A stretch of 64,000 bases of DNA from an uncultured Nitrososphaeraceae archaeon (GCA_963765895.1 CAVXZB010000064.1:64001-128000); one strand, 5' to 3'. Positions 758 through 59,494 are shown, counted from the first letter of the stretch. Notes: generated from the letters alone by a model not told the origin. Numbers and translations: made by a program.

Positions 758-1987
758 GTAACGTCAGCCAGCTGGCCTCGACCCCTGACCCAAAAACGTC
801 TAATGAAAAGTATAGGCATTTGTACGTTGTAATAGAACAGGAAGAGGGTAATCTGTTACCAGTGAATTTCGAAATGTTAGGTGAGGCAAGGAGATTGATG
901 GATGGATTTAATCTACGATATTCTGCCGAAGAGAAGGTTGTAGCCATTTTGCTTGGCAATGAAATGAGAAGTCAGTGTGACAAATTAATCAGCTATGGAG
1001 CTGATGCTGTGATATATGCAGAGAATCCGGAGCTCAAATACCATAGGAATCCGGTCTACACTAGAGTCATAAGCCAAATTGCAAATGATAGGGATTGTAG
1101 TAAGAAAATATCGGCCCGATACAGCGAAGAATTTAAGAGACCTCGATTCATGTTTTTTTCTGCAGATGATACTGGAAGGCATCTTTCGGCTACTGGTACT
1201 TGCTGAATTGGACTCTGGACTAGCCTCGGACATAAACAAACTTGTGATTGATGATATTGAATTAAAACACGAACACAAGACTAAGGGTCAAGTTGAAAAA
1301 TATTTTAAGACGTTGGAAATGTACAGACCTGACTTCTCAGGATTCCTGTGGACCACAATATTATGTCTTGATAACAGGCATCCTAATAACAGGAGGGAAT
1401 ACCATCCCCAGGCATGTAGTATTATTCCGGGGGTTTTTCAACCAGTCGAACCAGATAATAATAGAAAAGGTGTCATAGTGGATTACAAGGCAACACTGAA
1501 TACAAATGATTTGAGCGTCAAGATTTTAAATAGAAGGGTCGTAAAAAGCCCAATTGACTTTGACAGTCACAAGGCGATTGTGAGCTTTGGCCGTGGCATT
1601 AATGATTCTCCAGAAGAAAACATAGCATTGATTGACACTCTTAAACAGGAACTAGGGGCAGAAGTTGGCGTTTCGTTACCAATTTCGAAAAAAACTTACA
1701 ATATTTCAAACTCTAGATTGTCAGCCTATATAACAGCTGAACGGGTGATTGGCACAAGCGGCCGAAAGGTGGCCCCTACCTTGTACATTGCAGTAGGCAT
1801 TAGCGGAGCGATGCAACATATAGCTGGCATGAAAGAATCAGAATTTGTCATTGCGATTAACCCTGATACAGACTCGCCAATTAGAGATGAGTGCGACATA
1901 TTCATTAAAGGACAGATGGAAGATGTACTGCCCATGTTAATTGAAGAGCTTAGACAACAAAAAGCAATGGTGGAAGTGAGGAGCTAA
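754..1987 (+). CDS. fixB: Electron transfer flavoprotein alpha subunit (FixB/EtfA), one apparent +1 frameshift at about 1196
   Basis: ORF 754..1206 is the N-terminus (FEMLGEARRL, YGADAV). ORF 1079..1987 is the C-terminal FAD domain (IGTSGRKVAPTLYIAVGISGAMQHIAGM). Confidence 0.9.
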
Positions 1988-1991
1988 CAAA

Positions 1992-3864
1992 ATGGAAAAG
2001 TTCGATGTAGCGATTATTGGCGGAGGTTCTGCCGGCCTAGCCGCACTAAAACAGCTATCAAATCTTGGAAAGCAGGCCGTGTTATTAGAAAGTGGAAAAG
2101 CGATCGGTTCAAAGAGCATATCTGGAGGCATACTATATTCAAAAAAACCTAAACACGGTAGGGCTTACAATGTCGAAGATGTCTACGGACAAGAATTTGT
2201 CACAGAGGCCCCTCTAGAAAGATCGATTACGAAATACATCCTACATGCTACTTCGAATGATAAGGTATTTTCTATTGACCTCAGTTCTGCTCACAGCTAC
2301 CAGACCAACTTTGCTTACTCGGTACTTATGAATAAATTAAATTCTTGGTTTGCAAAGCAAGCAGGCGAAATCGCAGAAAAATACGGAGGGGGCATAATTC
2401 CAGGCGTTCATGTTCAGTCAATAGAGTGGAAGAATGGGACTACGATTGTTGAAACGAATGAATTAGAAACATTCCAAGTAAAAGCAATAATTGCTGCTGA
2501 TGGTGTCAATTCTGAGGTAGCAGAGCTCACAGGTGCTCGGCCGAAATTTATTCCGCAAGAGTTGTACCAAGGTGCCAAAGTCATAATTAAATTACCTGAA
2601 CAAATTATGGAACAAAGATTCAACATATCAGAAAATGACGGTGCTGCACATTTATTCTCTGGCGACATAGCTCAAAGACATATTGGGGGCGGATTTCTTT
2701 ATACTAATAGAGATACAATATCTCTTGGTGGTGTCTATCACTATGATTCGCTCTTAGATAGGGTTGTCGAACCTTACGAGCTCATTAATAAATTGATCCT
2801 AAACCCTATGGTAAGCGAATTCATAAAAGATGAAGTACCGCAGAAAGAAGAAATTGACAAAACTCTACCCAAAGAAGAGCAACTAAGAATCAGGTTTGCG
2901 GTAAGCAAATTGATTAGAACTTGGCAAGACTTGCGTCAGTCTTATTACTCGACATCGAGCACAGAAGACCTCATAAAAAGTGGGAAATATAAAACACGAG
3001 AGGAGATAGTAGCTAGGCTCGAAATGATTCGCAAAGAACTCGTTTCGAAGTATAGTACGAGATTTATCACCGACTACGTCGAATTGGAATACAGTGCCAA
3101 ACTTGTACCTGACGGAAAGAGATGTAGAATGAAGAAACCAAATCACAATAATGTGCTGTTCGTTGGAGACGCTGCAGGCAGGGGAATCTTTGTTGGTCCC
3201 CGCATTGAAGGAATCAATGTGGGCATAGACTGATGCGGTAAGAGCTGCCAACGCAATCTCAAGATCGCTCGACAGGAATAATTTTAACTACGAATATCTA
3301 GGAGGCTTCTATGCTCATTCTATTGATGAGAGTCCCTACACAAGGGATATGAAACAAATAGACAAAGACTATCTTAAGATCTTTCTAAATGCTACAAAAG
3401 ATATTCCCAAAGACATCATAGGCTCAAGATATAGCATGATATTTAAGCTGATGTCAAGTGAGACCTTCAGGGGGCTTGCCGTAGGGTTTGCTAATATCTT
3501 AGGATATGATCGACTTCTTCCAATATTAGAATCTGAAGAAACATATAATCAAGTCCCTATCGAACTCGCCGAAAAACTGGGTAAACGATTGAAATCTGAT
3601 TATCGACCATCTATACCATCGATCGCAGAGCGAGTTGCGAAATTAAAGTACGATGACGACACTGTATCTCACATTAAAGTTAATAATCCGACCAGCGAGT
3701 TTATGAAAAAAATGGTCTTGCTATGCCCTACAAAATGTTATACTATAGAAGAAAACCAGGTCGTACTCCAGCACGAGGGCTGCATCGAATGCGGTACGTG
3801 TGCTCCAGAAACTCAGTGGCGACATCCACGAGGAGAAAAAGGTATATCCTATCAATATGGCTAG
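1992..3864 (+). CDS. fixC: FixC-FixX fusion (ETF:quinone oxidoreductase-like flavoprotein with C-terminal ferredoxin), +1 frameshift at about 3231
   Basis: GGGSAG Rossmann motif, GGGFLYTN and VGDAAG. Removing one T at about 3231 joins GID-DAVRAAN... to the 3349 ORF, which carries CPTKCY, CIECGTC and WRHPRGEKGISYQYG. Confidence 0.85.
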
Positions 3865-3883
3865 GTATGTGATTCTTCACATA

Positions 3884-4432
3884 CTATTTCCATTTAATCG
3901 AGCATCCAATTGAAGGGTCAAAGCCATTCTTAATTTTACCACCTGCTAGTAATGTTTTTATATTATCTTCCATTATGTGAGTTTTAGCAATACTGTTAGG
4001 TTCAACAGCATCATTTATCCTACCGTGGTAGACCAGTCGTCTCTCACCATTAAACAGATAAGGATCAGGAGTACAAACTGCACCATATCTTATTGCCACA
4101 TCCTGAGCTTCGTCTATAAGATAGGGAAAATTCAATTGGTATTTTTCATAAAACTTTTTCATATTCTCAAATCCCTCCTCATCGTATGATGGATCGTTAC
4201 TATTAATACAAATGACCTGTAACTCGGACTTTTTGAATCTTGATTGTATTCTTACTATGTCAGTGATTCTAGCTTTGACATAGGGACAGTGATTGCAAAT
4301 AAATATAACTAATAAAGCTTCGCTTTTCCCAAACATTTCCAACGTATATAATTTATTATCTGTGCCTTTAAGTTCAAATTGAGGTGCTACTGCACCTTCC
4401 TTTAGTACCTGTGTGGACTCTGTTTTTACCAT
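3884..4432 (-). CDS. Thioredoxin-fold AhpC/TSA (PRX-like) protein
   Basis: FICNHCPYV, YGAVCTPD and C-terminal SIGCSIKWK. Confidence 0.88.
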   Translation of the reverse strand: MVKTESTQVLKEGAVAPQFELKGTDNKLYTLEMFGKSEALLVIFICNHCPYVKARITDIVRIQSRFKKSELQVICINSNDPSYDEEGFENMKKFYEKYQLNFPYLIDEAQDVAIRYGAVCTPDPYLFNGERRLVYHGRINDAVEPNSIAKTHIMEDNIKTLLAGGKIKNGFDPSIGCSIKWK

Positions 4433-4553
4433 TAACTGATCAGTGCATAATATACTAATAAAAATATTCTATTCTTCGCTAAATTCCTATGCATCTATGA
4501 ATAACCATTTGAAACAACTATCTTTGGTCTTTCGCGTGTCATAATACATAAAT

Positions 4554-4717
4554 GCCACTTGTGGCTTTTCATGTACAGAAATCTCATCTGGTTATACTAA
4601 CGTTAGTTGTTGGAATTAATTATTGACTAGCCAATATTTTAGACTTGATTTTCTTATGCCTGTACTGTCGCGACATGGAATTTCGAATTCAGAACATACT
4701 CGTATTTTCAGTATGTT
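4554..4717. promoter_or_regulatory. Cluster of dyad-symmetric sequences upstream of amt (candidate operators)
   Basis: GCCAC-TT-GTGGC at 4554-4565; ACTAACGTTAGT at 4596-4607; TGTCGCGACA at 4666-4675; AACATACT-N9-AGTATGTT at 4693-4717. Confidence 0.35.
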
Positions 4718-4800
4718 GGCATTTAGAGGAGCATGAATACGAAATTACCCCCGAATATCCAAGGGATAAATAGTATAAGGATTATTTCTACTCTGGTAAA

Positions 4801-6027
4801 ATGCCAATAGATACCGGTGACACTAGTTGGATGCTAATGTGTACCGGACTAGTTATGCTTATGACCCCTGCTCTAGGGTTCTTTGAGGCAGGCCTGATCC
4901 GAAGTAAGAATTCTCTTTCTGTAATCATGCAGACTTTCTCCGGTTTGGCAATACTATCAGTACTTTGGTTCATTATCGGCTTTACACTTGTTTATGCTCC
5001 ATCATTTGGTGGTATTATTGGTAAATTAGATTGGGCCTTTTTTAATGAGGTACCTTTTAAGACATCATTAGGATACGCCCCAACTATTCCTGGTGTTACT
5101 TTTGGAACCTATCAAATGATGTTTGCTGTAATAACACCGCTCCTAATCACCGGTGCATTTGCGGAGAGGCTAAAATGGAGTTCTTTCCTAATATTCATAG
5201 TAGCCTGGAGCTTGCTGGTCTACTATCCCTTAGCTCACTGGGTCTGGGGCAAGGGCTGGCTTGCGAAATTAGGAGTTTTTGACTTTGCTGGAGGAATAGT
5301 TATACATACTAGCGCCGGCATGGGCTCTCTTGCTGCTGCCCTTGTACCTGGACGTCGCCGCGATTTTGGTCCGGATATAATGGTTCCTCACAATATCCCT
5401 TTGGCAGTGTTAGGTGCGGCATTATTGTGGATAGGTTGGTTTGGTTTTAATGCAGGAAGCGCATTAGCATCAGGGAGTCTGGCTGCAAATACTCTATTGG
5501 TATCACATATTGCCTCTGCTACATCTGCTACAGTTTGGATCCTCTTGTCGTGGAAGAGATCAAAGAAGGCCTCGACCACAGCAGTAATAAATGGAGCGGT
5601 GGCAGGTCTTGCAGGTGTGACTCCAGCGGCAGGGTACATAACTGCACAAAGCTCATTCTTCTTGGGCCTAATTTTAGGACTAGTATCTTATTATGCGATC
5701 CTACTCCTTAAGGAACATTGGAAGATAGATGATGCATTGGATGTGAGTTCGGTTCATGGTATTACGGGGATAGTGGGTTCATTAGCAATTGGTCTTGTAG
5801 CTACTACAATAGTGAATCCCCATGGACCTACCGGTCTTATTTATGGAAATCCTATTCAACTTGCAATTCAAGCGCTAGGGATAGCCGTGGCTGCTGGCAT
5901 GGGATTTATAGGAACTCTCGTGATCATGAAAATTATAAGAAGGACTATCGGTTTGAGGGTAGAAGAGCACGAGGAAGATATAGGTTTAGACATCGCACAG
6001 CACGCGGAGAGGGCGTATGTTGAGTAA
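4801..6027 (+). CDS. amt: Ammonium transporter (Amt family)
   Basis: DTGDTSW, QMMFAVIT, HWVW, DFAGGIVIH, WFGFNAGS and DDALDVSSVHG; the twin His and Phe gate are present. Confidence 0.97.
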   Translation: MPIDTGDTSWMLMCTGLVMLMTPALGFFEAGLIRSKNSLSVIMQTFSGLAILSVLWFIIGFTLVYAPSFGGIIGKLDWAFFNEVPFKTSLGYAPTIPGVTFGTYQMMFAVITPLLITGAFAERLKWSSFLIFIVAWSLLVYYPLAHWVWGKGWLAKLGVFDFAGGIVIHTSAGMGSLAAALVPGRRRDFGPDIMVPHNIPLAVLGAALLWIGWFGFNAGSALASGSLAANTLLVSHIASATSATVWILLSWKRSKKASTTAVINGAVAGLAGVTPAAGYITAQSSFFLGLILGLVSYYAILLLKEHWKIDDALDVSSVHGITGIVGSLAIGLVATTIVNPHGPTGLIYGNPIQLAIQALGIAVAAGMGFIGTLVIMKIIRRTIGLRVEEHEEDIGLDIAQHAERAYVE

Positions 6028-6086
6028 CTTGAGATTTCATACCCCTAAACATCATATTTATGGGGAAAGGAGTAAATGAGCACCAA

Positions 6087-6438
6087 ATGAAGATGGTCCA
6101 AGCAATCATAAGGGCAGAGAGGATGCCTGATTTGAAGGAACATTTAAGATCAATTGGTGTCGGAGGCATGACAGTCTATACAGTATCAGGTTGGAGCAAG
6201 AAGAGAGAACTTCATCTTCAGTGGAGGGGTCAGCCCGTATCCTATGATCTTATACCAAGGACAAAATTTGAAATCGTTATTCCGGACGAGCAGACTAGAT
6301 ACTGTGATACGGACAATAACTGAACACGCTAGGTCGGGTAGCAGTGGTGATCATGGAGATGGCATAATATTTGTTTCTACCATAGAACATGCTATAAATA
6401 TTGCGACATTAGAAAAAGATGAGAAAGGTATCAAATGA
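6087..6438 (+). CDS. P-II family nitrogen regulator, +1 frameshift at about 6293
   Basis: MKMVQAIIR...GVGGMTV (first ORF) joins ARSG...GDGIIFVS (second ORF). Confidence 0.85.
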
Positions 6439-6567
6439 GTAAATTGCATCGGCAACCATATCGAAATCGAAAAACGAAAATGAATATGACTGAGCAGAGA
6501 ATGGTATCTAAAAATTCATATTGCCTAACTGCTCTTCTAAATTTTGTAGTGTGTTGTAGAAAAAATT

Positions 6568-6912
6568 ATGAAGCGTATAGATATAATTATACCACATGAA
6601 CGAATACGCGACGTTAACGAAATTCTTCATAATCACAAAGTTGGTGGGCTAAGTTTTTACGATATTAAAGGCAGAGGTCGGGCCAAACGTGAACCTATTG
6701 CGGTGGGTCGTGGTGTTATGCGATATGTACCAGAATTCGGATCCAGAACCAAAGTTGAGGTTCTAGTTTCAGACGACAAGGTAAAACCTATAATCCAGGA
6801 TATCATAGACGAGATGAGCACGGGCTCTTTTTCAGATGGCAAAATATTTCTATACGATGTTCTTGACGCCTACGATATAGGCACTAAGGAGACTCGAGAC
6901 AAGGCATTATAA
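6568..6912 (+). CDS. P-II family nitrogen regulator
   Basis: MKRIDIII, KGRGR, KVEVLV and DGKIF. Confidence 0.9.
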   Translation: MKRIDIIIPHERIRDVNEILHNHKVGGLSFYDIKGRGRAKREPIAVGRGVMRYVPEFGSRTKVEVLVSDDKVKPIIQDIIDEMSTGSFSDGKIFLYDVLDAYDIGTKETRDKAL

Positions 6913-7042
6913 TTCCGACCTTATTAGTATGTGTGATGCGTCATACAATATGAACTAGACAATTAGAAGGAAAACAATTCAAGATCTCAATACTTTGGTC
7001 GATCAAAAAAGGTTATTCAGTGATAGGCCTGATATATGACTA

Positions 7043-7426
7043 TTAGGATAATTTCGAGATCAGCTCCTTATACTTCATGATTAAATCAGGATCAACAACT
7101 CCTTGTACCACCATAATGTTACCATCTTGGAGTCTTATATCCATAGCCACAGCGCTGTAGGGGATTTCAAATTCCTCGATCTTTGATTCATCAGATGTGT
7201 CAAACATAATTTTGCATTCTCCATTATTACACGTATAACCAAAGATCCTTTCAACACGTCTTGAACCCGATCCACCGCCCCGCCCTCCGGCTGATCCCCT
7301 AGATTCCTGCACGATCAAAAAAAATATATCAATTTTGTTTCTCTTAGATAAATCTATTTCAGTACTGGAAACAAGAAGTTTTCTAGCGGGTAAAGCAAAT
7401 ACATCCTCTATTGAATTCATTGCCAC
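7043..7426 (-). CDS. Hypothetical protein with Gly/Arg-rich loop
   Basis: 127-aa ORF containing SRGSAGGRGGGSGSRR; protein-like composition. Confidence 0.65.
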   Translation of the reverse strand: MAMNSIEDVFALPARKLLVSSTEIDLSKRNKIDIFFLIVQESRGSAGGRGGGSGSRRVERIFGYTCNNGECKIMFDTSDESKIEEFEIPYSAVAMDIRLQDGNIMVVQGVVDPDLIMKYKELISKLS

Positions 7427-7566
7427 GAAAGCCTTATGACATAGGAATTTTGCATTGTTAATTATGCTCTCTGCGTTTTCAAATCAGACTATCGATCAGC
7501 ATAGTGCGATTATGATACACACAATGACACAAAGAAAATGTTTTTGCCTCTTGGAAGAAGTGCGGA

Positions 7567-9016
7567 TCAAGTTTCACCAATATTGTTGTCACCATATCCA
7601 TTTCTTGAGGATAATGCCTGGTTGGGCTGTAATACCATTTTTTTTTGCTGTCTATACCTTCTATAATCTTCATCTACCTCTATTGCTGACGCCAATATCT
7701 TACTTCTTATTGACTTGGAAGATTGTAAGAACATTTTAGTATCTTTTGGTAGACAATGACCACCTATTCCATCTCTTGGTTCAAGTATATTCACATTCCA
7801 TTTTGTATTTAGTGCATCTCGTAGTTCTGCAAAGTTTATGTTATTTGCTTGACAGTAAAGATACAGATCTTCTGCAAATGCTATTTGTAGATATCTGTTA
7901 GCATTTTCAGCAATCTTTGTAATTTCAGCAATTTCTATTTGAGGTACTGCATGCATACGAATATCCAAGCTCTTTTTGTGTGGATTTATTGTAGCCTGTT
8001 GTTGTTGTAGTTGTTCTTCATCTGTGACGATGTTATCATAATAATTATTATTTTCACTATTTTCTTTATCTTTATTATTATTATTATTATTATCTAGATT
8101 GCCTTTCTTTTCTGATTCTATTTCTATTCCGTATGCTTGACCCTTTATTTCTCCATTTATTCGTACTCTACCATCATAAAACTCCATAGCTACATCTAGA
8201 CAGCATTGACAGACTCCACCAAGTACTCGTAGTTGATTGACACCGTGTTCTTCTTGTTCTAATGCATACCAGCGATGAGGTGCATGAGCTACATGCAGTC
8301 TATGATTAAGCATTTCAAATACCTTCTTTGATGTACCTTTTGGAATAGTACTTTCTATTGAAACTAGTGCTCCATTCTTTGCTTCTTTTGATATCTTTTC
8401 AACTATAGATAATAGACCATCTATTTGTGGAGAAAACATGTCATCTGGTTTGTGTGTAGAAACACAGATGATAAAGACATCAAACGGACTAAAATCATAT
8501 GCAACGGAAGTATTACCATCATAATTATTATTATTATTATTATTATTATCTACTACTACTTACACTAACACTAGCACTATTACCATTATTTCTGGAGCTA
8601 TTATTGTTATTATTACTATCTCCAATCCTTTTTATTCCAGCTATTTTCTGTGCACGATCCATTGCTTTTGTACTTATGTCATAACCATATGTATCAAATC
8701 CACCTCTGTCCTTGATGTATTTTGCTACTGGTAAACCAAGTTGACCCAAGCCTATTACAAGAACTTTGCTAGACGAACTCTTATTTGCGGGGTAACTCGC
8801 TTGTGTGCCAAGATATTCTAAACCAATTTCTGAGGTTCGGTAAAGACCTTGAACCTTTTGATATCTAATCAAATCAGAAGCCATTAGACTGGTAAGATAA
8901 CTGTAGAATTGGTTATGAGTAAGAAACGCCCTGAACATGATTTCGGTTTTAGTCGCACCGGCACTTGCAGCAGTTAAAATTTGTGTCCTGATTTCCTTGT
9001 CTGTTCTCTTTCTCAT
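7567..9016 (-). CDS. Winged-helix domain fused to C-terminally truncated UDP-glucose/GDP-mannose dehydrogenase-family domain; frameshift at about 8550
   Basis: N-terminal wHTH (EIRTQIL...ATKTEIMFRAFL...YRTSEIGLEYL) is in frame with VLVIGLGQLG. After the shift: FDVFIICVSTH, IESTIPKGT, TKIAENANR and GIGGHCLPKD. Confidence 0.75.
8072..8092. repeat. (TTA)7 microsatellite encoding poly-Asn
   Basis: Read directly; lies in a low-complexity N/Q-rich insertion of the dehydrogenase domain. Confidence 0.9.
8525..8560. repeat. (TTA)8 followed by a short CTA repeat, encoding poly-Asn/Ser
   Basis: Read directly; the gene's frameshift falls at this junction. Confidence 0.9.
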
Positions 9017-41745: not shown

Positions 41746-41758
41746 TTTTGTAGATGCG

Positions 41759-41992: not shown

Positions 41993-42147
41993 GTCCTAAA
42001 TTTGTCCTGGACGCTAATAAAAATCATTACGAAGCTTCGATTCAGTATACTTTCTTGAATCGTCATACTAGCGAGCTTCGATTTTGACTTTCTGATCATA
42101 TTGAGTGGTAATATTCAAATTAGTCCTCTGAACGAATTTTAACATAT

Positions 42148-49649: not shown

Positions 49650-49650
49650 C

Positions 49651-50220
49651 ATGAGCAATAAAGGGAATCATAGCGTAAATGATCCTAAAGCAAATTCTTC
49701 CACAAAAATTGAACCTTCTAGTGCTCAGACTGGAATAAAACAGGAGGAAGCTCTGGTCCTTGAAAAGTCAATCGTAAACAAGTTAGTATCAAAGTTTGGG
49801 GACAAGATAAAAATCGCCTACACCAAGCCGCTCAGGATAAAAGTTGAGGTTGATAGGTCCGATGTAATTGAAGTTGCTTCATTTATCAAAGAAACTTTGC
49901 TTTTCGACCATGCCGAGTCTGTAGCGGGTACGGATTATCCTAAAGGCAATTACATAGAGGTTGTGTATCATTTAGGCTCATATACCAGAGACGAATTGGC
50001 CGCGCACGTGCTAGCTCTGGCAACTCGTACAAGCAGGGAAGATTCATCTCTTCCCTCATTGATAAATATTTACAAAAGTGTTGAATACCACGAGCGCGAA
50101 ACATTCGAAATGCTTGGAGTCTATTTTGAAGGGCATCCTAGAAATGATCGCTTCCTCCTGCCGGAGGACTGGGCAGACATTCCCCCTATGAGAAAGGAGT
50201 TCAGGATAAAAGGAAGGTGA
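49651..50220 (+). CDS. nuoC: Complex I subunit C
   Basis: ERETFEMLGVYFEGHP and PMRKEF. Confidence 0.95.
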   Translation: MSNKGNHSVNDPKANSSTKIEPSSAQTGIKQEEALVLEKSIVNKLVSKFGDKIKIAYTKPLRIKVEVDRSDVIEVASFIKETLLFDHAESVAGTDYPKGNYIEVVYHLGSYTRDELAAHVLALATRTSREDSSLPSLINIYKSVEYHERETFEMLGVYFEGHPRNDRFLLPEDWADIPPMRKEFRIKGR

Positions 50221-50221
50221 A

Positions 50222-51394
50222 GTGATGTCTACTGAATTTAGTAACGAAACATTGGAAAAGGATTCGAGTAATACTGGTCTTCAGATAATAAAAGAATCTG
50301 AAGAAGACCGTCTAATGACATTAAGCGTAGGCCCACAACATCCAGGTTCAGGACACTTTAGATTTACGGTTAAGGTTGATGGTGATTACATAGTTCATTG
50401 CGATCCAGACCCTGGATATGTACATCGAGGAGAAGAAAAGATGTGTGAATACCGCAACTTTATTCAGAATATTCCTCACCTCGAACGACCGGTTATACAC
50501 GATTCTAACAACATAACTTATTCATATAGTCTGGCTGTTGAGGAGTTAACAAAGATCCAGGTTCCTAGAAGGGGCCAATTTATCAGAGCTATAGCTTCAG
50601 AACTGAATCGCCAAGTATATACATTGTATTGGCTGGCAATATACGGTATTTTCTTGGGTCATTCGACAATGTTCATGTGGCCCACCGGTGATCGAGAGCT
50701 CTTTATTGATCTATTGGAGATGTTAACTGGTGCCCGAGTTACTCATGCGTTTAACATCCCTGGCGGAGTAAGAAATGACATGCCAGTTGGTTTTCCAGAA
50801 AAATGTCTCAGAAATATCTCTTACTTTGAAAAAAGATTGGTAGAGTACGAGAATATCTTTTATAATAACCCTTTGATGAGACAGAGAACCGAAAGTGTAG
50901 GATTACTCACAAAGGAAGACGCGATAAAATTGGGTGTTACTGGTTCTGTGCTAAGAGCGTCGAACACTCCTTATGATATTCGGAAGGCAGAACCATATGA
51001 TGTTTATAATGAAATTGACTTTAAAGTCCAATATATGAAAAGCTCTGATTGCTTTGCCAGAGCATACGTCCCGCTCTTGGATATGAGGGAGTCGTGTTAT
51101 ATCATGAGACAATTATTGGATAAGATCCCACAATCCGGCGAAGTTCGGGCAAAGCTGCAACCTAATCCAAAGGGTCCTGCTGGTGAAGCTTATAGGAGGG
51201 TAGAGTCTGGTAGAGGTGCATTGGGATATTACATTATCAGCGATGGTACTCCAAAACCGTACCGGGTGAAGATTTCGGTAGGCTCGTTTCGTAATATGCT
51301 GGCACTGCCGCATTTGCTTGTGGGAGCAAAATTAGCCGATATGCCTTCTATCTATTGGGCACTAAATTACTGGCCTGTGGAGGCTGACAGATAG
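50222..51394 (+). CDS. nuoD: Complex I subunit D
   Basis: GPQHP, GYVHRGEEK, ESGRG and C-terminal EADR. Confidence 0.97.
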   Translation: MMSTEFSNETLEKDSSNTGLQIIKESEEDRLMTLSVGPQHPGSGHFRFTVKVDGDYIVHCDPDPGYVHRGEEKMCEYRNFIQNIPHLERPVIHDSNNITYSYSLAVEELTKIQVPRRGQFIRAIASELNRQVYTLYWLAIYGIFLGHSTMFMWPTGDRELFIDLLEMLTGARVTHAFNIPGGVRNDMPVGFPEKCLRNISYFEKRLVEYENIFYNNPLMRQRTESVGLLTKEDAIKLGVTGSVLRASNTPYDIRKAEPYDVYNEIDFKVQYMKSSDCFARAYVPLLDMRESCYIMRQLLDKIPQSGEVRAKLQPNPKGPAGEAYRRVESGRGALGYYIISDGTPKPYRVKISVGSFRNMLALPHLLVGAKLADMPSIYWALNYWPVEADR

Positions 51395-51399
51395 TAGCC

Positions 51400-52704
51400 A
51401 TGGCATCAAGAGGGTCAAGAATTGTTGAATTTCGGTTTGGAAATTTTGTCGCTAGTCTAATTTGGTTAATACTAATTGTCCTCGTTATAGTAGCACTTGC
51501 CGCACTTCCGCTTATTTTTATCGTATTATTTTATGCTCCTCTTCCACCAATCAATGGCCAAGTCCTAACCCCATATCTCTTCTTGTCCATGATGGTGGAT
51601 CCGACAAGAACTCTGCCGGTTCTAAAGTTCATAATGCATACAGAGTTATTTAGAGTAGCAGTATTTCCAGGGTTCAGCTTTGCAGCAATATTTGCAGCTG
51701 TTACCATATTTGTAGAACGAAAGTTTCTGGCCAAGATGCAGCTGCGAGTAGGGCCCTTATACGCAGGCAAGATAGAGGGAATCCTACAATTAATTGCGGA
51801 TGGTTTAAAGTTGATTTCCAAGGAAATAATAATTCCCTCCGGCGCCGACAAGCCGATCTTTTGGGCCGCACCCATTGCCTTTGTTGCCGCTTCTGCGGCT
51901 GTAACCTCATTAATACCTGTAGCGCCAGGCTGGGTCGTTTCGAACACAGACGTGGGCCTTTTGGCCGCATTTGCCATTCTAGGTTTCTTCCCATTGATTG
52001 CTCTGCTCTTCTCTTGGGCTAGTAACAGCAAGTACCCATTCATCGGCGGCTTGCGTGCGCTTCATCAGATGATAGCTTTTGAAATACCTTTCATACTGTC
52101 TGCATTGTCTGTTGTTATCCTCGCGGGTTCTCTGAATTTAACGAATATTGCAGCTGCTCAGACGCCATATTGGTATATCTTCTTTTTGCCAATAAGCGCT
52201 TTTGTATTCTACATCTCTTCTCTTGCGGAGTTGGAAAGAATTCCTTTCGACCTGCCTGAAGCAGAAAGTGAAATAGTAGCAGGCTGGCTGACTGAAACAT
52301 CAGGGATGATATATGGTCTACTTCAACTGGGAACTTATATCAAATTGTATGCCTTGGCTGCCCTTTTTGTCACTCTATTTCTTGGAGGTTGGGCTGGTCC
52401 ACAGATCTTTCCTCAAGTGCTTGGTCCTCCAGGTCCACAAAGCCCATTGATCCAATTACTTACACTTAGACCTATATACAATCCCGTCATTGTTAATGAT
52501 GTCTTTTGGTTCTCGATCAAGACATTTGGAATTATAATGCTCATGTTGTTACCAAGAGGAATAAATCCGAGAATCAGGATTGACATACTGTTACATACAG
52601 GCTGGTACAAGCTGATTGTGTTGTCATTCATAAATATGTTTATAGCCCTCGCTTTAGTTTATGGAGGAGTGTTTGGTCCAGGGGGAGTGTTGACACCACA
52701 TTGA
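51400..52704 (+). CDS. nuoH: Complex I subunit H
   Basis: ERKFLAKMQLRVGP, DGLKLISKE, PFDLPEAESE and PRIRID. Confidence 0.97.
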   Translation: MASRGSRIVEFRFGNFVASLIWLILIVLVIVALAALPLIFIVLFYAPLPPINGQVLTPYLFLSMMVDPTRTLPVLKFIMHTELFRVAVFPGFSFAAIFAAVTIFVERKFLAKMQLRVGPLYAGKIEGILQLIADGLKLISKEIIIPSGADKPIFWAAPIAFVAASAAVTSLIPVAPGWVVSNTDVGLLAAFAILGFFPLIALLFSWASNSKYPFIGGLRALHQMIAFEIPFILSALSVVILAGSLNLTNIAAAQTPYWYIFFLPISAFVFYISSLAELERIPFDLPEAESEIVAGWLTETSGMIYGLLQLGTYIKLYALAALFVTLFLGGWAGPQIFPQVLGPPGPQSPLIQLLTLRPIYNPVIVNDVFWFSIKTFGIIMLMLLPRGINPRIRIDILLHTGWYKLIVLSFINMFIALALVYGGVFGPGGVLTPH

Positions 52705-53198
52705 CAGCCGCTGGTGCTTTTATTAAGGCAATAGAATCTGGCTCAAAACATCTTATAATAAAGAGATTTACATTGCGCTATCCTGAAAAGAAGCTCAAAT
52801 TCGTAGGTGATGGCTATCAGTTTGATCCCAAACGTGGCGTTGGTATAGCCGGATACCGCGGGAGACATATTCTGTTCCACGACAAGTGTACTGGTTGTCA
52901 ATTATGTGCAATAGCGTGCGAGGGCATAGCGGAAGCGATAGGGATGGTTAAAGTAGATGAAAAATGGAAACACAACAAGAAATCTATCATGCCTCAAATA
53001 GACTTTGGCAAGTGTGTCTTCTGCGGTCTATGCGTTGACGCTTGTCCGTTCTACGCACTGTACATGACTGATGATTATGAATTATCAGCCTTTACAAAAG
53101 AACACCTAATTTATACTCCTGCGCAACTTGCGGTTAAACCAAAGTATGATGGTAGCGTCGAGCTAAAGATCGATGATAGAGGGGCGACGCATGGCTGA
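52701..53198 (+). CDS. nuoI: Complex I subunit I
   Basis: Two CxxCxxCxxxC ferredoxin motifs. Confidence 0.97.
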   Translation: MTAAGAFIKAIESGSKHLIIKRFTLRYPEKKLKFVGDGYQFDPKRGVGIAGYRGRHILFHDKCTGCQLCAIACEGIAEAIGMVKVDEKWKHNKKSIMPQIDFGKCVFCGLCVDACPFYALYMTDDYELSAFTKEHLIYTPAQLAVKPKYDGSVELKIDDRGATHG

Positions 53199-53715
53199 TC
53201 CGATATTTATTGCAACTGCCGTCCTAACAATCGGTGCAGCAATTGTTGCCTTGGAATCAAGAGAATTAATCTATGGAGGTATAGCTTTAGCCATCTCGAT
53301 GCTGGGTGTAGCAGGATTCTTTTTGCTCTTGGATTCTCCTTTTGTAGCAATGTTTCAGATCACAGTTTATGTCGGGGCAGTCGCTGTACTTGTAATTTTC
53401 ACTGTAATGCTCGTACGAACTCAAGAATTGTTCTCTAAAAGAGAAGACAGAGGCCGAAAAGGTGCTGGAATAGTTCTCTTGATAATATTGATGGCTAGCT
53501 TGGGAGCAATATTCATCTTTTCTGGAATCAATAACCCTAACGTGATGAAAATTCAGGGGTCGGGAATTAACTTCACCGCTATAGGGAAACAGATGCTCAC
53601 ATATTATTCTCCTGCACTCATAGTACTGGGATTGGTACTAGCAGCTGCAATAATAGGAGCATTGACATTGGCTCGCAGGGAGGACCTAGAACAACGACAT
53701 GAACGAACTGATTGA
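53191..53715 (+). CDS. nuoJ: Complex I subunit J
   Basis: QITVYVGAVAVL; operon position. Confidence 0.95.
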   Translation: MADPIFIATAVLTIGAAIVALESRELIYGGIALAISMLGVAGFFLLLDSPFVAMFQITVYVGAVAVLVIFTVMLVRTQELFSKREDRGRKGAGIVLLIILMASLGAIFIFSGINNPNVMKIQGSGINFTAIGKQMLTYYSPALIVLGLVLAAAIIGALTLARREDLEQRHERTD

Positions 53716-54001
53716 TTACATTATCGCAAGTACTATCCTGGTTGCTATCGGGATATATGGATTAGTGGTAAAGAGAAATGCAATACGTATGATATTTGCC
53801 ATCGAAATAATTGCAAACGCGGCAAATATAAACCTGGTCGCTTTTTCAAGAAGCGTTAATAATGCGCAGGGACAACTTTTTGCGTTATTCTCAATCGCAA
53901 TTGCGGCAGCTGAAGTGGCAGTTGGCCTTGGTATTATTATTATTGCCTACAGGCTGTACAAGGAGATCGACGTTGAGGAATTTAGGAGTATGAAGGGCTA
54001 G
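53699..54001 (+). CDS. nuoK: Complex I subunit K
   Basis: IEIIAN and AAAEVAVGL. Confidence 0.95.
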   Translation: MNELIDYIIASTILVAIGIYGLVVKRNAIRMIFAIEIIANAANINLVAFSRSVNNAQGQLFALFSIAIAAAEVAVGLGIIIIAYRLYKEIDVEEFRSMKG

Positions 54002-55810
54002 TTGGCACAACTATTTTTCTTGATGGTTGCCACTTTTTTACCTTTGATTCTGTCACCGGTATCATACTACTTTGGTAGAAAGTATGGAATGAATATAACA
54101 GCGTGGTTTTCATTCGCCGTGATAGCAATATCAACGATCATGTTATCTATTCCAGCCATGATGCTAAACGGAGGTAAGTCTGTATACGCTGAAAGTTATA
54201 CATGGAGCCAGTTTGGAAATTTTGGCTTGAGATTGGATGGACTCAGTCTGCCATTTGCTATAACCATATACATTTTATGCACAGTTCTTGCTCTTTACTC
54301 TAAACCATACATGGCACATCGAATCGAGGAGGAAGCTAATGAACGATTCAACACACCTGGTAAATTTGGCAATTCCCACTCCGAAACTAGAGAAAAAACA
54401 AGTCAAACGGGAAGTGGTCAATCGGGGCGACTGAATATTGAAACAGTCGAACAGAGAACAATTCTAGCTCAAAGAGAACACTATGTAAATTCCCAGACTG
54501 GTCTATATTTTGCACTCTATCTGATGTTTTCAATGGGGATGTTGGGAACAATTTTAGCCACTAATCTGATAGAATTTTATGTCTTCTTCGAACTTATGCT
54601 TGTCCCATCGTTTTTTCTGGTCGCGTTTTATGGCTACGGAGCAAGACGTAGAATTGCTCTCATGTTCTTTTTCTGGACTCATACTGGAGCAGTCGTTTTG
54701 TTGCTAGGCTTGCTAGCTATGGGATTTTTTGCAGGAGGCTTTGATTATTCTATTGTAAAGGCAAATGCATCACGCATCCCAGTTCAGTGGATAACAATAA
54801 TCATATTTGCGATCGTAATAGGCCTGGGTGTTAAGTTGGCTGCATTCGGGCTTCATATATGGCTGCCATACGCACATGCAGAAGCGCCAACTCCAATCTC
54901 GGCTCTGTTGTCTCCTGCGATGATTGGGATTGGTGCCTACGGCTTACTTCGTCTTTGGATGGACCTTTTGACTGGAAATTATGCTCAGTATAGCATCTAC
55001 ATCAACATTTGGGGACTAGCTACAATGATTTATGGGGGCGCCATGGCTCTTATGCAGGATGATATCAAAAAGGTACTTGCTTATTCTAGCATTAGCCAGA
55101 TGGGTTATATCCTATTTGGACTAGGATCAGAAAGTATCTTGGGTATTACGGGAGCTACCCTGATGTATGTCACACATGGTTTGGGAAAAGGAATCTTGTT
55201 TATGATGGCTGGATCGATTATCCTCCAGACAGGAACAAGAAGTATGTCCAAGTTAGGAGGACTGGCTGGAAAGATGCCTTACACCGCAGTAATAGCGATG
55301 ATCGGTGGACTGACGATCATTGGCATTCCACCGACGAGCGGCTTTATGTCAGAGTGGATTCTATTTAATGGGGTTCTTCAGACAGGTGTGCATGATATGA
55401 ACTCGTTCAGAGTAGTCCTTTTTGGATTTGGTATATTGACAACAGTACTTTCTACTGCTTATATTCTGTGGATGTACAAGCGTATATTTTTTGGAAAACT
55501 TCCAGAATACTTGCAACAAGTGAAGGAATCAAACAGGTATGTTACCGTTACAATGGCAGTTTTGGCTGCAATAACTCTTATTATCGGTGTATATCCTAAC
55601 CCATTTGTCACACCAATCTCAAGCTATATTCAGGCCATGTTTGCAAATACGCCCCAAGTCCTGCCGCTACCAGGTCATAGTCATCAATTACCAATACCAA
55701 TTAATAGGAATGTTAATCCCATATCCGACAGTCACTTGCCTCACAACGTCTATACTGAACATGCTGCAGACTTGCTTTTCAGTATACATAGATCTGGAGT
55801 CCAGAACTAA
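54002..55810 (+). CDS. nuoM: Complex I subunit M
   Basis: LDGLS, FYVFFELMLVP, HIWLPYAHAEAPT and AYSSISQMG. Confidence 0.93.
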   Translation: MAQLFFLMVATFLPLILSPVSYYFGRKYGMNITAWFSFAVIAISTIMLSIPAMMLNGGKSVYAESYTWSQFGNFGLRLDGLSLPFAITIYILCTVLALYSKPYMAHRIEEEANERFNTPGKFGNSHSETREKTSQTGSGQSGRLNIETVEQRTILAQREHYVNSQTGLYFALYLMFSMGMLGTILATNLIEFYVFFELMLVPSFFLVAFYGYGARRRIALMFFFWTHTGAVVLLLGLLAMGFFAGGFDYSIVKANASRIPVQWITIIIFAIVIGLGVKLAAFGLHIWLPYAHAEAPTPISALLSPAMIGIGAYGLLRLWMDLLTGNYAQYSIYINIWGLATMIYGGAMALMQDDIKKVLAYSSISQMGYILFGLGSESILGITGATLMYVTHGLGKGILFMMAGSIILQTGTRSMSKLGGLAGKMPYTAVIAMIGGLTIIGIPPTSGFMSEWILFNGVLQTGVHDMNSFRVVLFGFGILTTVLSTAYILWMYKRIFFGKLPEYLQQVKESNRYVTVTMAVLAAITLIIGVYPNPFVTPISSYIQAMFANTPQVLPLPGHSHQLPIPINRNVNPISDSHLPHNVYTEHAADLLFSIHRSGVQN

Positions 55811-55845
55811 AATATGACAGGTTTGGGAGATCGGTTAGAGTAGCA

Positions 55846-57903
55846 ATGAACGAAGTGATTGGATTTCAGGGATTGGGTGTTAACACATGGCTAGTTTGGA
55901 TCCTGCCATTTGTAGGGGCTGCTGTTATACCGGCTATATCGCATAGACCTGAACGAATTAAAAATTACACAGCCATAGGCTTTGCATTGGCAAGTGCAAT
56001 TACAGCATCGACACTGTTACCGCTGATAGCTAGTAATAGCGTAGTGGATAGCCAGGTCAGTTGGATAAGCGCATTGGGCCTCAAAGCAGGAGTTCTTGCT
56101 ACTCCACTATCTGTAATAATGACTAACCTCGTAGCATGGATATCTTTTCTCATTATGGTCTACTCGATGGGCTATATGCATGGAGATAAGGACATGACAC
56201 GTTTTTGGTTTTTTATGCTCTTTTTCATTGGATCTATGCAGCTGATCGTTCTATCCGACAACCTTCTGATGATGTTCTTTGGATGGGAAGGTGTTGGCCT
56301 GGCGTCCTACGCTCTGATTGGATTTTGGCATGCCGACAGAAAGAAAGACTATGTCGGCAGGGAAGGGCATTTTGCAGGAGGCATTGCAATGTGGGCATCT
56401 CCTACACACGCTGGAATGAAGGCTTTTCTCATGACAAGGGCCGGGGATACCATGATGCTCGCAGGAATGTTTTTGATATTTATTTATTCTGGCACGTTTG
56501 GATTTAAAGAACTAGCCCAGAATCAAGGATGGTCTATTCAAATGGCTCATCAAAACCTGTTGGTGCCAGCAGCTGTCCTGCTCTTTGGAGGAGCAATTGG
56601 AAAATCAGCTCAATTTCCATTAAATGAATGGCTCTTGGAGGCTATGACCGGCCCCACTCCAGTATCTGCACTTATTCATGCAGCAACTATGGTAAAGGCA
56701 GGTGTTTTCTTGGTAGCACAGGTTGGGCCCCTTTTCTTTGCATTAGCTGCGTTTGGAGTTACCCAATTTTTTGAGGTCGTAGCTTGGGTTGGGGCAATTA
56801 CAGCATTTTTACTAGCCACCCAGGCCCTGGTAAATCCAGAAATCAAAAAGGTCCTTGCCTATTCTACCGGCTCTCAAATAGGATATATGATGATGGCCCT
56901 AGGAATCGCTGGTCTTTCAACCAATTTCGTTGAGGGTTACACGGCAGGGTTCTTTCAGCTTATAAGTCACGCCCTGTTTAAGGCCTCTCTTTTCATGGGC
57001 GCAGGGGCTCTCTTGCATACTGTGGGATCCAGATACATGACAGATATGGGTGGAATGCGCAAATATATGAAGAAGACATACATTTTCATGCTCTTAGCAG
57101 CACTATCGCTTGCAGCTGCGCCACTGGTGACCTCTGGCTTTTGGAGTAAAGACGCGATATTTGCCGCTGTCCTTGAGTCTGGATACGTCTATGCAACACC
57201 TCTTTTCGCAATAGCTGTCATAGTAGCTATAATGACTGCCTTTTACACATTTAGGATGGTAGGAATGGCCTTTTTTGGCGAGGAGAGCAAACATGTAAAG
57301 AACTTGAAGGAGACTGGGCACCATATCCACGAGGTGGGTAAGGTTATGTGGCTTCCATTTGCCATCTTGGCAGTTGCAACCATCGCTGTGGGACTAATTG
57401 GTCCTCTCTTTGAAGCTCAATTGCATCACACATTTGCAGAATATCTTTCAGGCTCATTTGGAATAAAAGAAACTGCAAATACTGAAAATACGAGTAAAGC
57501 AGCGGAAACGTTTATGGGCATCAACCCTACGGCTGGAGCGGCATCGGTTGGAGCTTTTGCAATAGGTGGCGGCTTGGGATACGTTTTCTATATTGGAAGA
57601 CACGTAAATCCGAAAATCATATCGGCATCTGTAATTACAAGGGGCATCTGGAGGTTCTTGTACAACAGATGGTATCTTAATACTGCACTGTACTGGGGTG
57701 GAGTAATTGGCCCGATATTTATCTATCGGGTAGTGTGGAGATATTTTGAAAGCATAGTAATTGAAGGAATTAATCCAGCATTTCAGTATTCCATGACATC
57801 ATTTTCTAAAATTGTAAAGACAGCTCAAACTGGGATTACACAGACTTATTTGTTCGTATTTGGAGTGGGTATCATGATTATAGTCATGTTACTCTTCATT
57901 TGA
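55846..57903 (+). CDS. nuoL: Complex I subunit L
   Basis: GWEGVG, GKSAQFP, AMTGPTPVSALIHAATMV and GFWSKD. Confidence 0.95.
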   Translation: MNEVIGFQGLGVNTWLVWILPFVGAAVIPAISHRPERIKNYTAIGFALASAITASTLLPLIASNSVVDSQVSWISALGLKAGVLATPLSVIMTNLVAWISFLIMVYSMGYMHGDKDMTRFWFFMLFFIGSMQLIVLSDNLLMMFFGWEGVGLASYALIGFWHADRKKDYVGREGHFAGGIAMWASPTHAGMKAFLMTRAGDTMMLAGMFLIFIYSGTFGFKELAQNQGWSIQMAHQNLLVPAAVLLFGGAIGKSAQFPLNEWLLEAMTGPTPVSALIHAATMVKAGVFLVAQVGPLFFALAAFGVTQFFEVVAWVGAITAFLLATQALVNPEIKKVLAYSTGSQIGYMMMALGIAGLSTNFVEGYTAGFFQLISHALFKASLFMGAGALLHTVGSRYMTDMGGMRKYMKKTYIFMLLAALSLAAAPLVTSGFWSKDAIFAAVLESGYVYATPLFAIAVIVAIMTAFYTFRMVGMAFFGEESKHVKNLKETGHHIHEVGKVMWLPFAILAVATIAVGLIGPLFEAQLHHTFAEYLSGSFGIKETANTENTSKAAETFMGINPTAGAASVGAFAIGGGLGYVFYIGRHVNPKIISASVITRGIWRFLYNRWYLNTALYWGGVIGPIFIYRVVWRYFESIVIEGINPAFQYSMTSFSKIVKTAQTGITQTYLFVFGVGIMIIVMLLFI

Positions 57904-57917
57904 GGTGATATTGAAAG

Positions 57918-59494
57918 ATGGCTGAAGGTCTAGTAATATCAACCCCGCTCATTCTTACAGTAGTATTGGGAGTTGTGGGACTTGCTATACCGGTAATAGA
58001 TGGGCTACGGAAAGAAAGAGGTACTAGTAACAAGCTATACAGTGCAATTTCTGTTGGTACTCTTATTTTTGCAATAGGATTTGTGATCGCTAGGGTATTA
58101 TCAGGGGAAGTGATGCCAGCGATGGCCTTTGGCCCTGGTGTACTTTCTAATGATGTATTTGGGTCGTTTTTTGCTGTCGCATTCTTAATTGTCTCTATAA
58201 TGGTAACAGCTTCCTCATGGAACTACATGAAGGGAAGAACAAATCCTGCTGCCTACTATTCACTAATTCTTTTGTCTACTATAGGCATGGTGCTCATTGC
58301 ATACTCTACTGACCTAGTCATGTTACTTGTATCTTGGGAATTGATGTCACTACCAACTTATGCACTCGCGGCGTTCTCAAAAAGAGACCCAATTTCGAAC
58401 GAAGCTCGCTATCAAGTACTTTATGTTCGGTGCGCTGTCATCAGCCATACTTGTAATCGCTATAGGTCTCGTGTATGGAATCACAGGAACTACAAATATT
58501 GCTCAATCGATCCAGGCGATGGCTCATCTCCAAAAAGACTTGATACCGGTTGGTTTATTGGCAGTAGCGCTCTTCATAGCCGGTTTTGGTTTCAAGATGG
58601 GACTGGTCCCGTTTCATATGTGGCTCCCAGATGCTTACGAAGGTTCCCCTACGACTATAGGTGCGCTATTGGCAGCTGGAACCAAGAAAGCAGGCTTTGC
58701 TGCCGCAATCCGAGTCATTGTGCTGGGAATGTTTGTACTAAATCCAGATTGGACTCTTGTTTTAGCTGTAGTAGCCGTATTTACCATGACACTTGGTAAC
58801 CTAGGTGCACTGGTCCAGAGAAGCGTTCCTAGAATTCTGGCTTATTCGAGCATTGCCCAGGCCGGCTATATCTTGATTGGGCTTGCAATTACACCATATT
58901 CCGATCAGGCATTGCCTGGTTCACTATTTCAGATATTAAATCATGCAGTGATGAAGTCAGCCGGCTTTATAGCAGCTGCTCGCAGTCGCCACTGCGTTGG
59001 CCAGTTACAGTCTGGAAAAATACAGAGGACTTGGTCGTCGCATGCCTATAACGGCCATAGCATTCTCCATCTCATTGTTGGCACTTGCTGGAATACCCCC
59101 GTTAAACGGCTTCTGGGGAAAACTGGTGATCTTTGGCGCGGCTATTAATAGCGGTTCGGAGGTTCCATGGGGTCCGTACTTGGCAATAGCCGGTGTCCTT
59201 AATAGTGCTCTGTCTTTGGGTTACTATGCTTGGATTATGAGAAAAATGTACATGGAAGAAGGACCTGATATGACTAGGGTCAAAGAACCCAGAGCTACGA
59301 CTGCTGTATTAATTTTCGCCATTGTGTTTATGGTTGGTTTTGGAGTCTGGCACGCACCGATACTTGAGTTTGCCTCAAAGGCTGTACCTACGTTTAGCAA
59401 CACATTCAACATCGGCGTGTCAAAGCCGATACCAGTAATTACCACTCATGGTATCGATAATAATCCCAATCAATCGATTACTCCTTTGAACTAG
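57918..59494 (+). CDS. nuoN: Complex I subunit N; frameshifts at about 58407 and 58981
   Basis: WELMSLP, KYF, FKMGLVPFHMWLPDAYEG and LAGIPPLNGFWGK across three ORFs. Confidence 0.93.

Follow-up and report, generated by a model that had tools for sequence, protein, structure and literature searches.

Broken genes and single-base indels in the window

The window, by which we mean the whole 64,000-nucleotide stretch of DNA analysed here (G000:C64:64001-128000), carries about 20 genes that are broken by small insertions or deletions (indels). Among them are the genes for glycine--tRNA ligase (glyS), glutamate--tRNA ligase (gltX, broken twice), ribosomal protein uS2, enolase (eno), NuoN (twice), geranylgeranyl diphosphate synthase (twice), type 2 isopentenyl diphosphate isomerase, isopentenyl phosphate kinase, the P-II nitrogen regulator and EtfA/FixC-like proteins. 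In the list of open reading frames of the window the damage appears as numerous same-strand frames that abut, which is the pattern expected of frameshifts, and the products were identified from the intact frames of a related genome (G004) as named by NCBIfam. A prediction made from the sequence alone, hereafter the original prediction, had stated that many of the frameshifts hit essential genes (gltX, glyS, rps2, eno), and the intact frames bear this out. The source genome, G000, is a 4.9-Mb metagenome-assembled genome (MAG) from soil in 88 contigs, 88% complete, with contigs of 33-40% G+C and up to 576 kb in length. It is assigned to an ammonia-oxidising soil archaeon of the Nitrososphaeraceae, because the 234 relatives of one of its methyltransferases (M3, discussed below; 73-99% identity) carry the titles Nitrososphaeraceae, Nitrososphaera or Nitrososphaerales.

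The main comparison was a blastn alignment of the window to G004, a genome of the same genus at 95-96% identity, which covers positions 5-7775, 8617-49260 and 49528-60530; for 60531-64000 a close relative was not found among the 13 genomes searched. Changes were polarised with G003 (89% identity) and G005 (77-82%; a congeneric species whose assembly has large contigs), and an indel is called private where the window stands alone against G004 plus G003 and/or G005. Against G004 the window has 69 indel events, 50 of them of 1 bp, and 28 of these 50 are private. All but two of the 28 lie inside a motif or at most 2 columns from one, 17 at GCWGC/GCSGC and 9 at GTAC. Since motif-adjacent positions make up 5.1% of the alignment columns, this corresponds to a binomial p of 7e-32, and the enrichment over background on which the original prediction turned is thus real. 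The remaining 22 single-base indels, mostly non-coding and not polarised, provide an internal control, with one at a motif (9232), as chance predicts. Erroneous 1-bp indels occur in the window at a frequency of about one per 2 kb.

Short-read data provide a second view of the same sites. A run search with positions 22000-31999 returned 20 soil-metagenome runs from 8 studies, each holding a third to half of the 31-mers of this segment, and Logan contigs of four runs, each from a different study (X1, X2, X4 and X15), were aligned to positions 22000-41999. Of the 19 indels in this part of the window, the short-read contigs undo at least ten by position (27884, 28598, 31699, 34295, 34594, 35162, 36730, 37108, 40149 and 40151). 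Eight of the other nine fit the gap counts or the loose ends of contig pieces, and among the pieces listed none spans 32236. Pieces from X4 are identical to the window except at gaps, as in 28999-29613 with 0 mismatches and 1 gap. The loose ends in X4 and X15 contain what we take to be Nextera transposase adapter, an indication that the libraries were short-read. As G003, G004 and G005 hold the uninterrupted state at the private indels, and a real loss of about 20 genes including tRNA ligases, uS2 and enolase is not credible, the private indels of the window are errors of this assembly and not biology. The frameshifts had been taken for consensus errors from the start, and their absence from the short-read contigs of four studies and from three relatives agrees with this. 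The assembly itself is probably long-read and nanopore-only, to judge from its error profile and from the length of its contigs, which for a soil MAG reach 576 kb.

The events at GCWGC and GCSGC are spread along the window and are described here relative to the relatives. An extra A at 6294 (GCAGAC for GCAGC) breaks the gene for the P-II nitrogen regulator, an extra C at 10284 (GCTGCC for GCTGC) that for a nucleotide-sugar dehydrogenase, and an extra T at 12806 (GTCTGC for GCTGC) an Fe-S assembly gene of the SUF-associated type. A 273-aa gene of no known family contains an extra C at 23794 (GCTCGC for GCTGC) and lacks a G at 24032 (CGGC for GCGGC), the latter being the sole clean GCSGC case in the window; both lie within an X1 piece (22679-24105) that aligns with 3 gaps. 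The extra G at 28598 (GGCAGC for GCAGC) falls in a glycosyltransferase gene and is omitted in all four runs. Another gene of no known family (380 aa) contains an extra G at 29505 (GCGAGC for GCAGC), which fits the single gap of the X4 piece mentioned above. The gltX gene is broken twice by an extra C (GCTGCC for GCTGC), at 34295, where X1, X2 and X15 agree with the relatives, and at 34594, where short-read contigs do so as well. At 35427 a G is missing (GCTC for GCTGC) from the geranylgeranyl diphosphate synthase gene, which an X15 piece (34945-36374) spans with 2 gaps. An extra G at 36730 (GCGAGC for GCAGC), undone in all four runs, breaks the type 2 isopentenyl diphosphate isomerase gene, and a missing G at 37109 (GCTC for GCTGC), restored behind 37108 by short-read contigs, breaks that for isopentenyl phosphate kinase. 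Both G residues of a GCAGC are missing at 40150-40152 (CAC) in the gene for uS2, and X2, X4 and X15 insert a G behind 40149 and behind 40151. The eno gene has an extra C at 41448 (GCTGCC), and a loose end of X1 at 41447 continues without this C. The NuoN gene is broken by an extra C at 58407 (GCTCGC for GCTGC) and a second time by an extra base at 58980, where the window has GCTCGC and the relatives read GC-AGC. The extra G at 9232 (GCGAGC for GCAGC) is non-coding and is covered by G004 only, hence not polarised.

At GTAC, an extra G at 1196 (GGTAC for GTAC), which G003, G004 and G005 all lack, breaks the gene for an electron-transfer flavoprotein alpha subunit (FixB-like), and an extra A at 18701 (GTAAC for GTAC) breaks glyS. 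The extra G at 22118 (GGTAC for GTAC) lies in a Nudix hydrolase gene; G003 agrees with G004, an X2 piece has 1 gap and X15 has a loose end at 22118. The 273-aa gene contains, within the same X1 piece, an extra G one base ahead of GTAC at 23885 (CCAGAGTAC vs CCAAGTAC), and an extra G at 24379 (GTGAC for GTAC) breaks a gene of the UbiE/MenG methyltransferase family, where X1 and X4 pieces have 1 gap. At 27885 a G is missing (TAC for GTAC) from the glycosyltransferase gene that is hit again at 28598, and X1 and X15 insert it behind 27884. A glutamine amidotransferase gene (GMP synthase subunit A-like) is broken by an extra C at 31698 (GTACC for GTAC), in disagreement with the relatives and X15, and the geranylgeranyl diphosphate synthase gene by an extra G one base ahead of GTAC at 35162 (again CCAGAGTAC), in disagreement with the relatives and X1, X4 and X15. 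Finally, an extra C at 46922 (GTACC for GTAC) breaks a TldD/PmbA metalloprotease gene.

Four events lie at neither motif. An extra C at 3230 (TAGACTGAT vs TAGATGAT in the relatives) breaks the gene for a FixC-like oxidoreductase dependent on flavin adenine dinucleotide. An extra base at 32236 (CACTCAATA vs CACTAATA, G003 agreeing with G004) falls in a 62-codon frame or in non-coding DNA. At 8548-8550, outside the coverage of G004, there is a length difference of 2 or 5 nt to paralogous copies on C24, C23 and C88, and at 63357-63379 a frame junction on the minus strand lies beside runs of A5 and T7, as seen by comparison with a 76% paralogue on C24 only.

These results largely reproduce the site list of the original prediction, which was drawn up by restoring protein motifs. 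Its 15 sites at GCNGC are all found within 3 nt, as are 8 of its 9 sites at GTAC; the ninth, placed at 37094, has no GTAC, and the true event is the G missing at 37108/37109 (GCTGC to GCTC). The three frameshifts that it assigned to neither motif (3231, 8550 and 63378) all stand, the first at 3230. Its five GCTCGC readings are present as GCTCGC at 23794, 58407 and 58980 and as the reverse complement GCGAGC at 29505 and 36730. The alignments add four indels to that list, at 22118 (GGTAC), 40152 (the second G lost from the same GCAGC), 9232 (GCGAGC, non-coding) and 32236 (no motif).

Recurrence of the motifs across the genome and in related assemblies

The comparison was extended with 40 further contigs of G004 (308 kb), of which 222 kb aligned at a mean identity of 94.3% to 27 other contigs of G000, none of them C64. 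A k-mer enrichment with no preset motif, based on 334 clean and isolated 1-bp indels (37 from the window and 297 from the 222 kb on other contigs), returned GCAGC/GCTGC as the top 5-mer near indels (25 observed vs 2.4 expected, p = 1e-17) and GTAC as the top 4-mer (25 observed vs 6.35 expected, p = 1e-8), followed by A/T homopolymers. Expressed per site, indels are found at 14/110 GCWGC sites in the window and 14/238 on the other contigs (28/348 pooled, 8.0%), and at 8/146 and 19/453 GTAC sites (27/599 pooled), compared with 18/4,252 and 156/14,717 for 22 control motifs taken together (174/18,969 in total, 0.9%). The excess over controls holds on the other contigs alone, with p = 6e-7 for GCWGC and p = 1e-6 for GTAC.

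The first motif had been written GCNGC, and this is probably too broad. GCSGC carries indels at 2/43 sites in the window and 3/121 on other contigs (5/164 pooled, 3.0%), less often than GCWGC (Fisher p = 0.034, pooled); its excess over controls has p = 0.02 for the pooled sites and p = 0.14 outside the window, and some of the GCSGC hits overlap a GCWGC. The motif is therefore better written GCWGC. Words that differ slightly from the palindrome stay at background, with indels at 0/253 and 8/715 sites for CAGC/GCTG outside GCWGC and at 0/164 and 2/372 for GCWGG/CCWGC. Thus, the complete palindrome is required for the errors.

The errors take a small number of forms, and these forms and their reverse complements, on both strands, recur in the window and on the 27 other contigs. 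GCTGC becomes GCTGCC (4 cases in the window and 4 on other contigs), GCTCGC (4 and 3), GCTC (2 and 3) or GTCTGC (2 and 1), and GTAC becomes GGTAC (4 and 9) or GTCAC (1 and 3). Private indels of G005 show the same forms, namely GCTCGC, GGCAGC, GCTGCC and GTACC. Several other words show no such footprint in G000: GATC has indels at 0/238 and 7/720 sites and AGCT at 4/219 and 10/636, neither in excess, and AGCT, CCGG and GANTC sites are at background. Substitution errors at the two motifs were also considered. Motif losses counted in both directions, G004 vs G000, were 22 vs 6 in the window and 50 vs 41 on the other contigs for GCWGC, and 35 vs 32 and 108 vs 98 for GTAC. An excess that is not consistent between the window and the other contigs led us to reject such errors, and the signal is thus confined to indels. 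The genome does not avoid either word. GTAC (11,918 sites) has an observed/expected ratio of 0.91, with other 4-mer palindromes at 0.87-1.10, and GCWGC (7,010 sites) a ratio of 1.14.

Error-prone assemblies elsewhere in the family show other sets of motifs. In G123, a long-read-looking Nitrososphaeraceae assembly, 44 frameshift junctions were found in 179 kb of homologue-covered DNA (G123:C1:1-400000; L182-L201). They are enriched at AGCT (13 observed vs 3.3 expected, P <0.0005), at GCWGC and its error forms (7 vs 1.8, P 0.0025), at GTAC (6 vs 2.2, P 0.02) and at CCGG (6 vs 1.1, P 0.001). In the long-read-looking and error-prone genome G216 (28% G+C, 6.3 Mb), the 32 kb of covered DNA (C1-C20, L220-L239; L153) contain 18 junctions, five of which lie at GAWTC (0.79 expected, P = 0.0002, for a motif picked after seeing the data), which hints at a CcrM/HinfI-like mark. 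None of the 18 is at GCWGC or GTAC, a zero that has no power because chance predicts only 0.24 and 0.81. In summary, the motif sets differ among the three genomes, with GCWGC and GTAC in G000, AGCT and CCGG in addition in G123, and GAWTC in G216.

Candidate methyltransferases

The original prediction saw no DNA methyltransferase gene in the window and proposed a search of the rest of the genome. The first point holds for the entire contig of the window, on which PF00145, PF01555, PF02384, PF02086 and PF07669 have no match. The search revealed four genes with a TSPPY motif and a Dam homologue, all outside that contig, and none of m5C (5-methylcytosine) type. A whole-genome search with hidden Markov models (HMMs) gave no match in G000, 88% complete, to the C5-cytosine methyltransferase family PF00145, which matched in 9/14 control genomes. 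Nor was the PCQ+ENV signature of these enzymes found in a six-frame scan of G000, and PF02384 had no match in the whole-genome HMM search. RE_Bsp6I (PF09504) was not matched in G000 nor in any control genome, and so counts for little. PF01555 (N6_N4_Mtase) produced eight matches corresponding to six genes, in addition to one PF02086 Dam homologue and one marginal Eco57I-like match.

The motif SPPY marks N4-cytosine methyltransferases and DPPY/NPPY marks N6-adenine methyltransferases, and in the beta class motif IV (S-P-P-Y/F) precedes FxGxG. TSPPY is found in M1 (on C88), M3 (G000:C19:354860-355735, minus strand; L075:5863-6735), M4 (C43:~16800-17831) and M5 (C69), which is paralogous to M1 and split into three pieces. 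DPF.G.G follows near the C-terminus in M1, M3 and M4, and the last piece of M5 breaks off just after DPFCGTG. M2 has DPPF, and M6 and the Dam homologue (M7) have DPPY. The PF01555 scores of M1 (167.7 bits), M3 (118.9 bits) and M4 (two pieces of 58 and 84 bits) are above the curated cut-off, and the nearest solved relatives of M3 include chains named DNA cytosine-N4 methyltransferase. From PF01555 and TSPPY, we classify M1, M3 and M4 as candidate writers of the beta-class N4-cytosine type with a putative specificity for GTAC or GCWGC.

M3 lies in the shikimate operon between the genes for 3-dehydroquinate synthase II and 3-dehydroquinase, with no endonuclease neighbour, and M2 likewise lies among housekeeping genes. 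From these surroundings both look like orphan methyltransferases, M3 being of a housekeeping type. The M1 family is present in 10/12 genomes of the family. M4 occurs in 92/201 family genomes and follows genus lines (g1 6/6, g22 32/37, g2 0/34, g20 0/25); this tally includes three genomes flagged as unpublished (G051, G089 and G173), all M4-positive. In G001, G002, G004, G005, G006 and G008, M4 is one open frame of 357-373 aa, and in G003 one of 325 aa. In G000 it contains one frameshift, which, like those that split M5, is at neither GCWGC nor GTAC; the frame overlap of M4 (C43:17235-17290) includes two AGCT sites.

The three assemblies with errors of the GCWGC type (G000, G005 and G123) all carry M4, which is compatible with M4 as the GCWGC writer but does not discriminate. 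G216, where M4 was not found although all seven other long-read-looking genomes tested carry it, is AT-rich and has little covered DNA, so its zero at GCWGC and GTAC is uninformative on M4. Two further M4-negative genomes, both with few contigs, are clean assemblies and likewise uninformative on a link between M4 and GCWGC: the homologue-covered DNA contains 3 frameshift junctions over 95 kb in G030 and 4 over 145 kb in G050, where three fall at homopolymer runs. Among 80 related loci surrounding M3, 4 frameshifts were found in 3/8 long-read-looking loci vs 0/72 of the others, too few for motif statistics. A reasonable guess assigns GTAC and AGCT to two of the widely kept enzymes and GCWGC to M4.

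Probable modification of the two words and alternative explanations

We consider it probable that the indels at GCWGC and GTAC arise from modification of these words, a conclusion that we infer from the errors, as we do the platform and the enzyme. The organism would modify the two palindromes, most likely as N4-methylcytosine (m4C), through orphan methyltransferases of the beta class whose genes lie outside the window. The basecaller and polisher would then misread some of the modified sites in the same way in most reads, such that GCWGC is turned into GCTGCC, GCTCGC, GCTC or GTCTGC and GTAC into GGTAC/GTACC, GTGAC or TAC. Because most reads would share the misreading, extra depth could not correct it. 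Modification is favoured because the full palindrome is needed, because GTAC matches the known methylome of the order, and because other error-prone assemblies of the family show other motifs.

The background for this comes from a REBASE survey of persistent orphan methyltransferases in 519 archaeal genomes (PMC10609329). According to the parts of the survey used here, Nitrososphaerales have orphan m4C methylation of GTAC (8/8 genomes) and AGCT (8/8), Nitrososphaerota have N6-methyladenine (m6A) at GATC (27/29), and Nitrososphaera has m4C at CGCG and one enzyme with an unknown site; GCWGC is not among the motifs given there. The enzyme assigned to GTAC, HG10, resembles the present case in order and in word, and beta-class N4-cytosine candidates exist in G000 (M1, M3 and M4). 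Like persistent orphans of the HG10 type, M3, the M1 family and M4 are kept within the clade or within genera. In contrast to HG10, methylation of GTAC is here read from errors. Systematic errors at methylated motifs have been described in nanopore assemblies, with most methylated sites called correctly (PMC11610603; PMC12392509). In these accounts, as far as they were consulted, including that of the 'Hammerhead' method (PMC11610603), errors likewise occur at methyltransferase motifs, persist at high depth and reveal motifs in the absence of raw signal. They differ in being mainly C>T and G>A at 5mC and 6mA motifs, in contrast to the 1-bp indels at likely 4mC sites that break about a third of the genes of the window.

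Several observations weigh against modification as the cause. The share of sites with an indel is small, 5-13% for GCWGC and 4-6% for GTAC. GATC and AGCT are reported to be methylated across the order in the available part of the archaeal survey (PMC10609329), yet show no excess of indels in G000, which makes the footprint at best a partial read-out. Methylation-linked errors in nanopore assemblies are, in the portions of the two reports considered, mostly substitutions (PMC11610603; PMC12392509), not indels. Finally, the differences among G000, G123 and G216 could come from software versions, and the GAWTC test in G216 was post hoc.

The strongest alternative is a generic context bias, in which the basecaller or polisher miscalls these 5-6-mers regardless of modification and the motifs carry no information on the methylome. 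The small share of affected sites, the stereotyped error forms, such as a model bias would give, and the lack of a footprint at GATC and AGCT in G000 are all in keeping with it. However, a bias of this kind sits poorly with the fact that both words are full palindromes of which near-identical non-palindromic versions stay at background, with the other motif sets of other error-prone long-read assemblies in the family (AGCT/CCGG in G123; GAWTC and 0/18 at GCWGC/GTAC in G216), and with GTAC being a documented m4C site of the order in the sections of the survey drawn upon (PMC10609329). We regard context bias as unlikely, while giving it more weight than any other alternative.

The original prediction had framed the motifs as targets of restriction-modification (R-M) systems, one of Fnu4HI type (GCNGC, m5C) and one of RsaI type (GTAC), whose protective methylation would cause the errors. 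Both words are classical Type II targets, and those of Fnu4HI/Bsp6I and RsaI overlap the error motifs. GCSGC has a small excess over controls (5/164 vs 0.9%, p = 0.02), genes may be missing from a genome that is 88% complete, and the GCWGC methyltransferases of archaea in a REBASE-based review table are, in the rows taken from it, all typed m5C (PMC11033074). Methylation of the M.ApeKI/TseI type in particular has the same word as its target in archaea (PMC11033074, as excerpted). But these are C5-cytosine enzymes, and neither HMM search nor motif scan found one in G000, although the same search matched control genomes; if GCWGC is modified here, an enzyme of another class would be responsible. 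The endonuclease was not found in G000 either, a result of little weight given the controls, and GCSGC is affected less often than GCWGC, where an Fnu4HI-type system would target both. The two words are not avoided and the candidate genes lie off the contig of the window, which fits orphan enzymes rather than restriction, as does the position of M2 and M3 among housekeeping genes. An R-M origin of the errors is improbable on this evidence, which points to orphan methylation as the frame to replace it. That the frameshifts are real, as pseudogenes, programmed frameshifting or a mutator hotspot at GCWGC/GTAC, is hardly conceivable: the deposited record does contain them and some frames are long on both sides, but they are absent from the short-read contigs of four studies, including pieces that match the window except at gaps, three relatives lack them, and they would cost about 20 genes within 64 kb, tRNA ligases, uS2 and enolase among them.

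Given modification of the two words as the preferred explanation, the GTAC footprint is an indirect re-discovery of the m4C mark reported for the order, GCWGC is a new lead for the clade, and the occurrence of indels rather than substitutions is an unusual trait. The phenomenon as such is a known kind of assembly artefact and useful rather than surprising to the specialist; in the literature searched we found no published account of an indel footprint of this kind in this clade. One tentative extension is that GCWGC is modified in this genus by a beta-class N4-cytosine methyltransferase, with M4 as the best candidate, and that indel footprints in unpolished long-read MAGs offer a partial read-out of methylomes that differ among lineages. 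The footprint thereby offers a cheap and concrete hypothesis on the epigenome of uncultured soil ammonia oxidisers, that of a GCWGC mark without a detectable C5 methyltransferase.

In practical terms, about a third of the genes of the window are artificially frameshifted, and extrapolated to the whole genome roughly a thousand sites would be affected, because there are 7,010 GCWGC and 11,918 GTAC sites of which 4-13% carry errors. Gene calls, pseudogene counts, the completeness estimate (88%) and protein databases are affected in this record and in sister assemblies. Correction calls for short reads or a modification-aware model, not for more depth. The same assembly problem is seen elsewhere in G000, where the genes for EPSP (5-enolpyruvylshikimate-3-phosphate) synthase (L075:1817-2885), a pyridoxal phosphate-dependent enzyme (L076:2005-3241) and an amidase (L079:9987-10808) are each represented by two abutting frames.

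Three further features are of a different nature. A repeated element of about 1.1 kb (window 7643-8767), with a minus-strand frame of 290 codons (7567-8439), contains the ATT/ACT triplet run in which the length difference near 8550 lies. Other copies in G000 (92-97% identity) are found on C24, C23, C88, C57 and C22, and many partial copies are present in most relatives, including several in G007, a genome in a single contig. Compared with G004, the window has a 45-nt insertion at 12303-12347, within a poorly conserved intergenic segment (12087-12600) that is rich in small indels. M6 (G000:C57:13622-14947, minus strand; L078:5625-6947), a 441-aa protein with DPPY, is encoded beside an 881-aa primase-polymerase/MCM helicase, a SIR2-like protein and IS4/5 transposase fragments, a neighbourhood that is probably an integrated mobile element.

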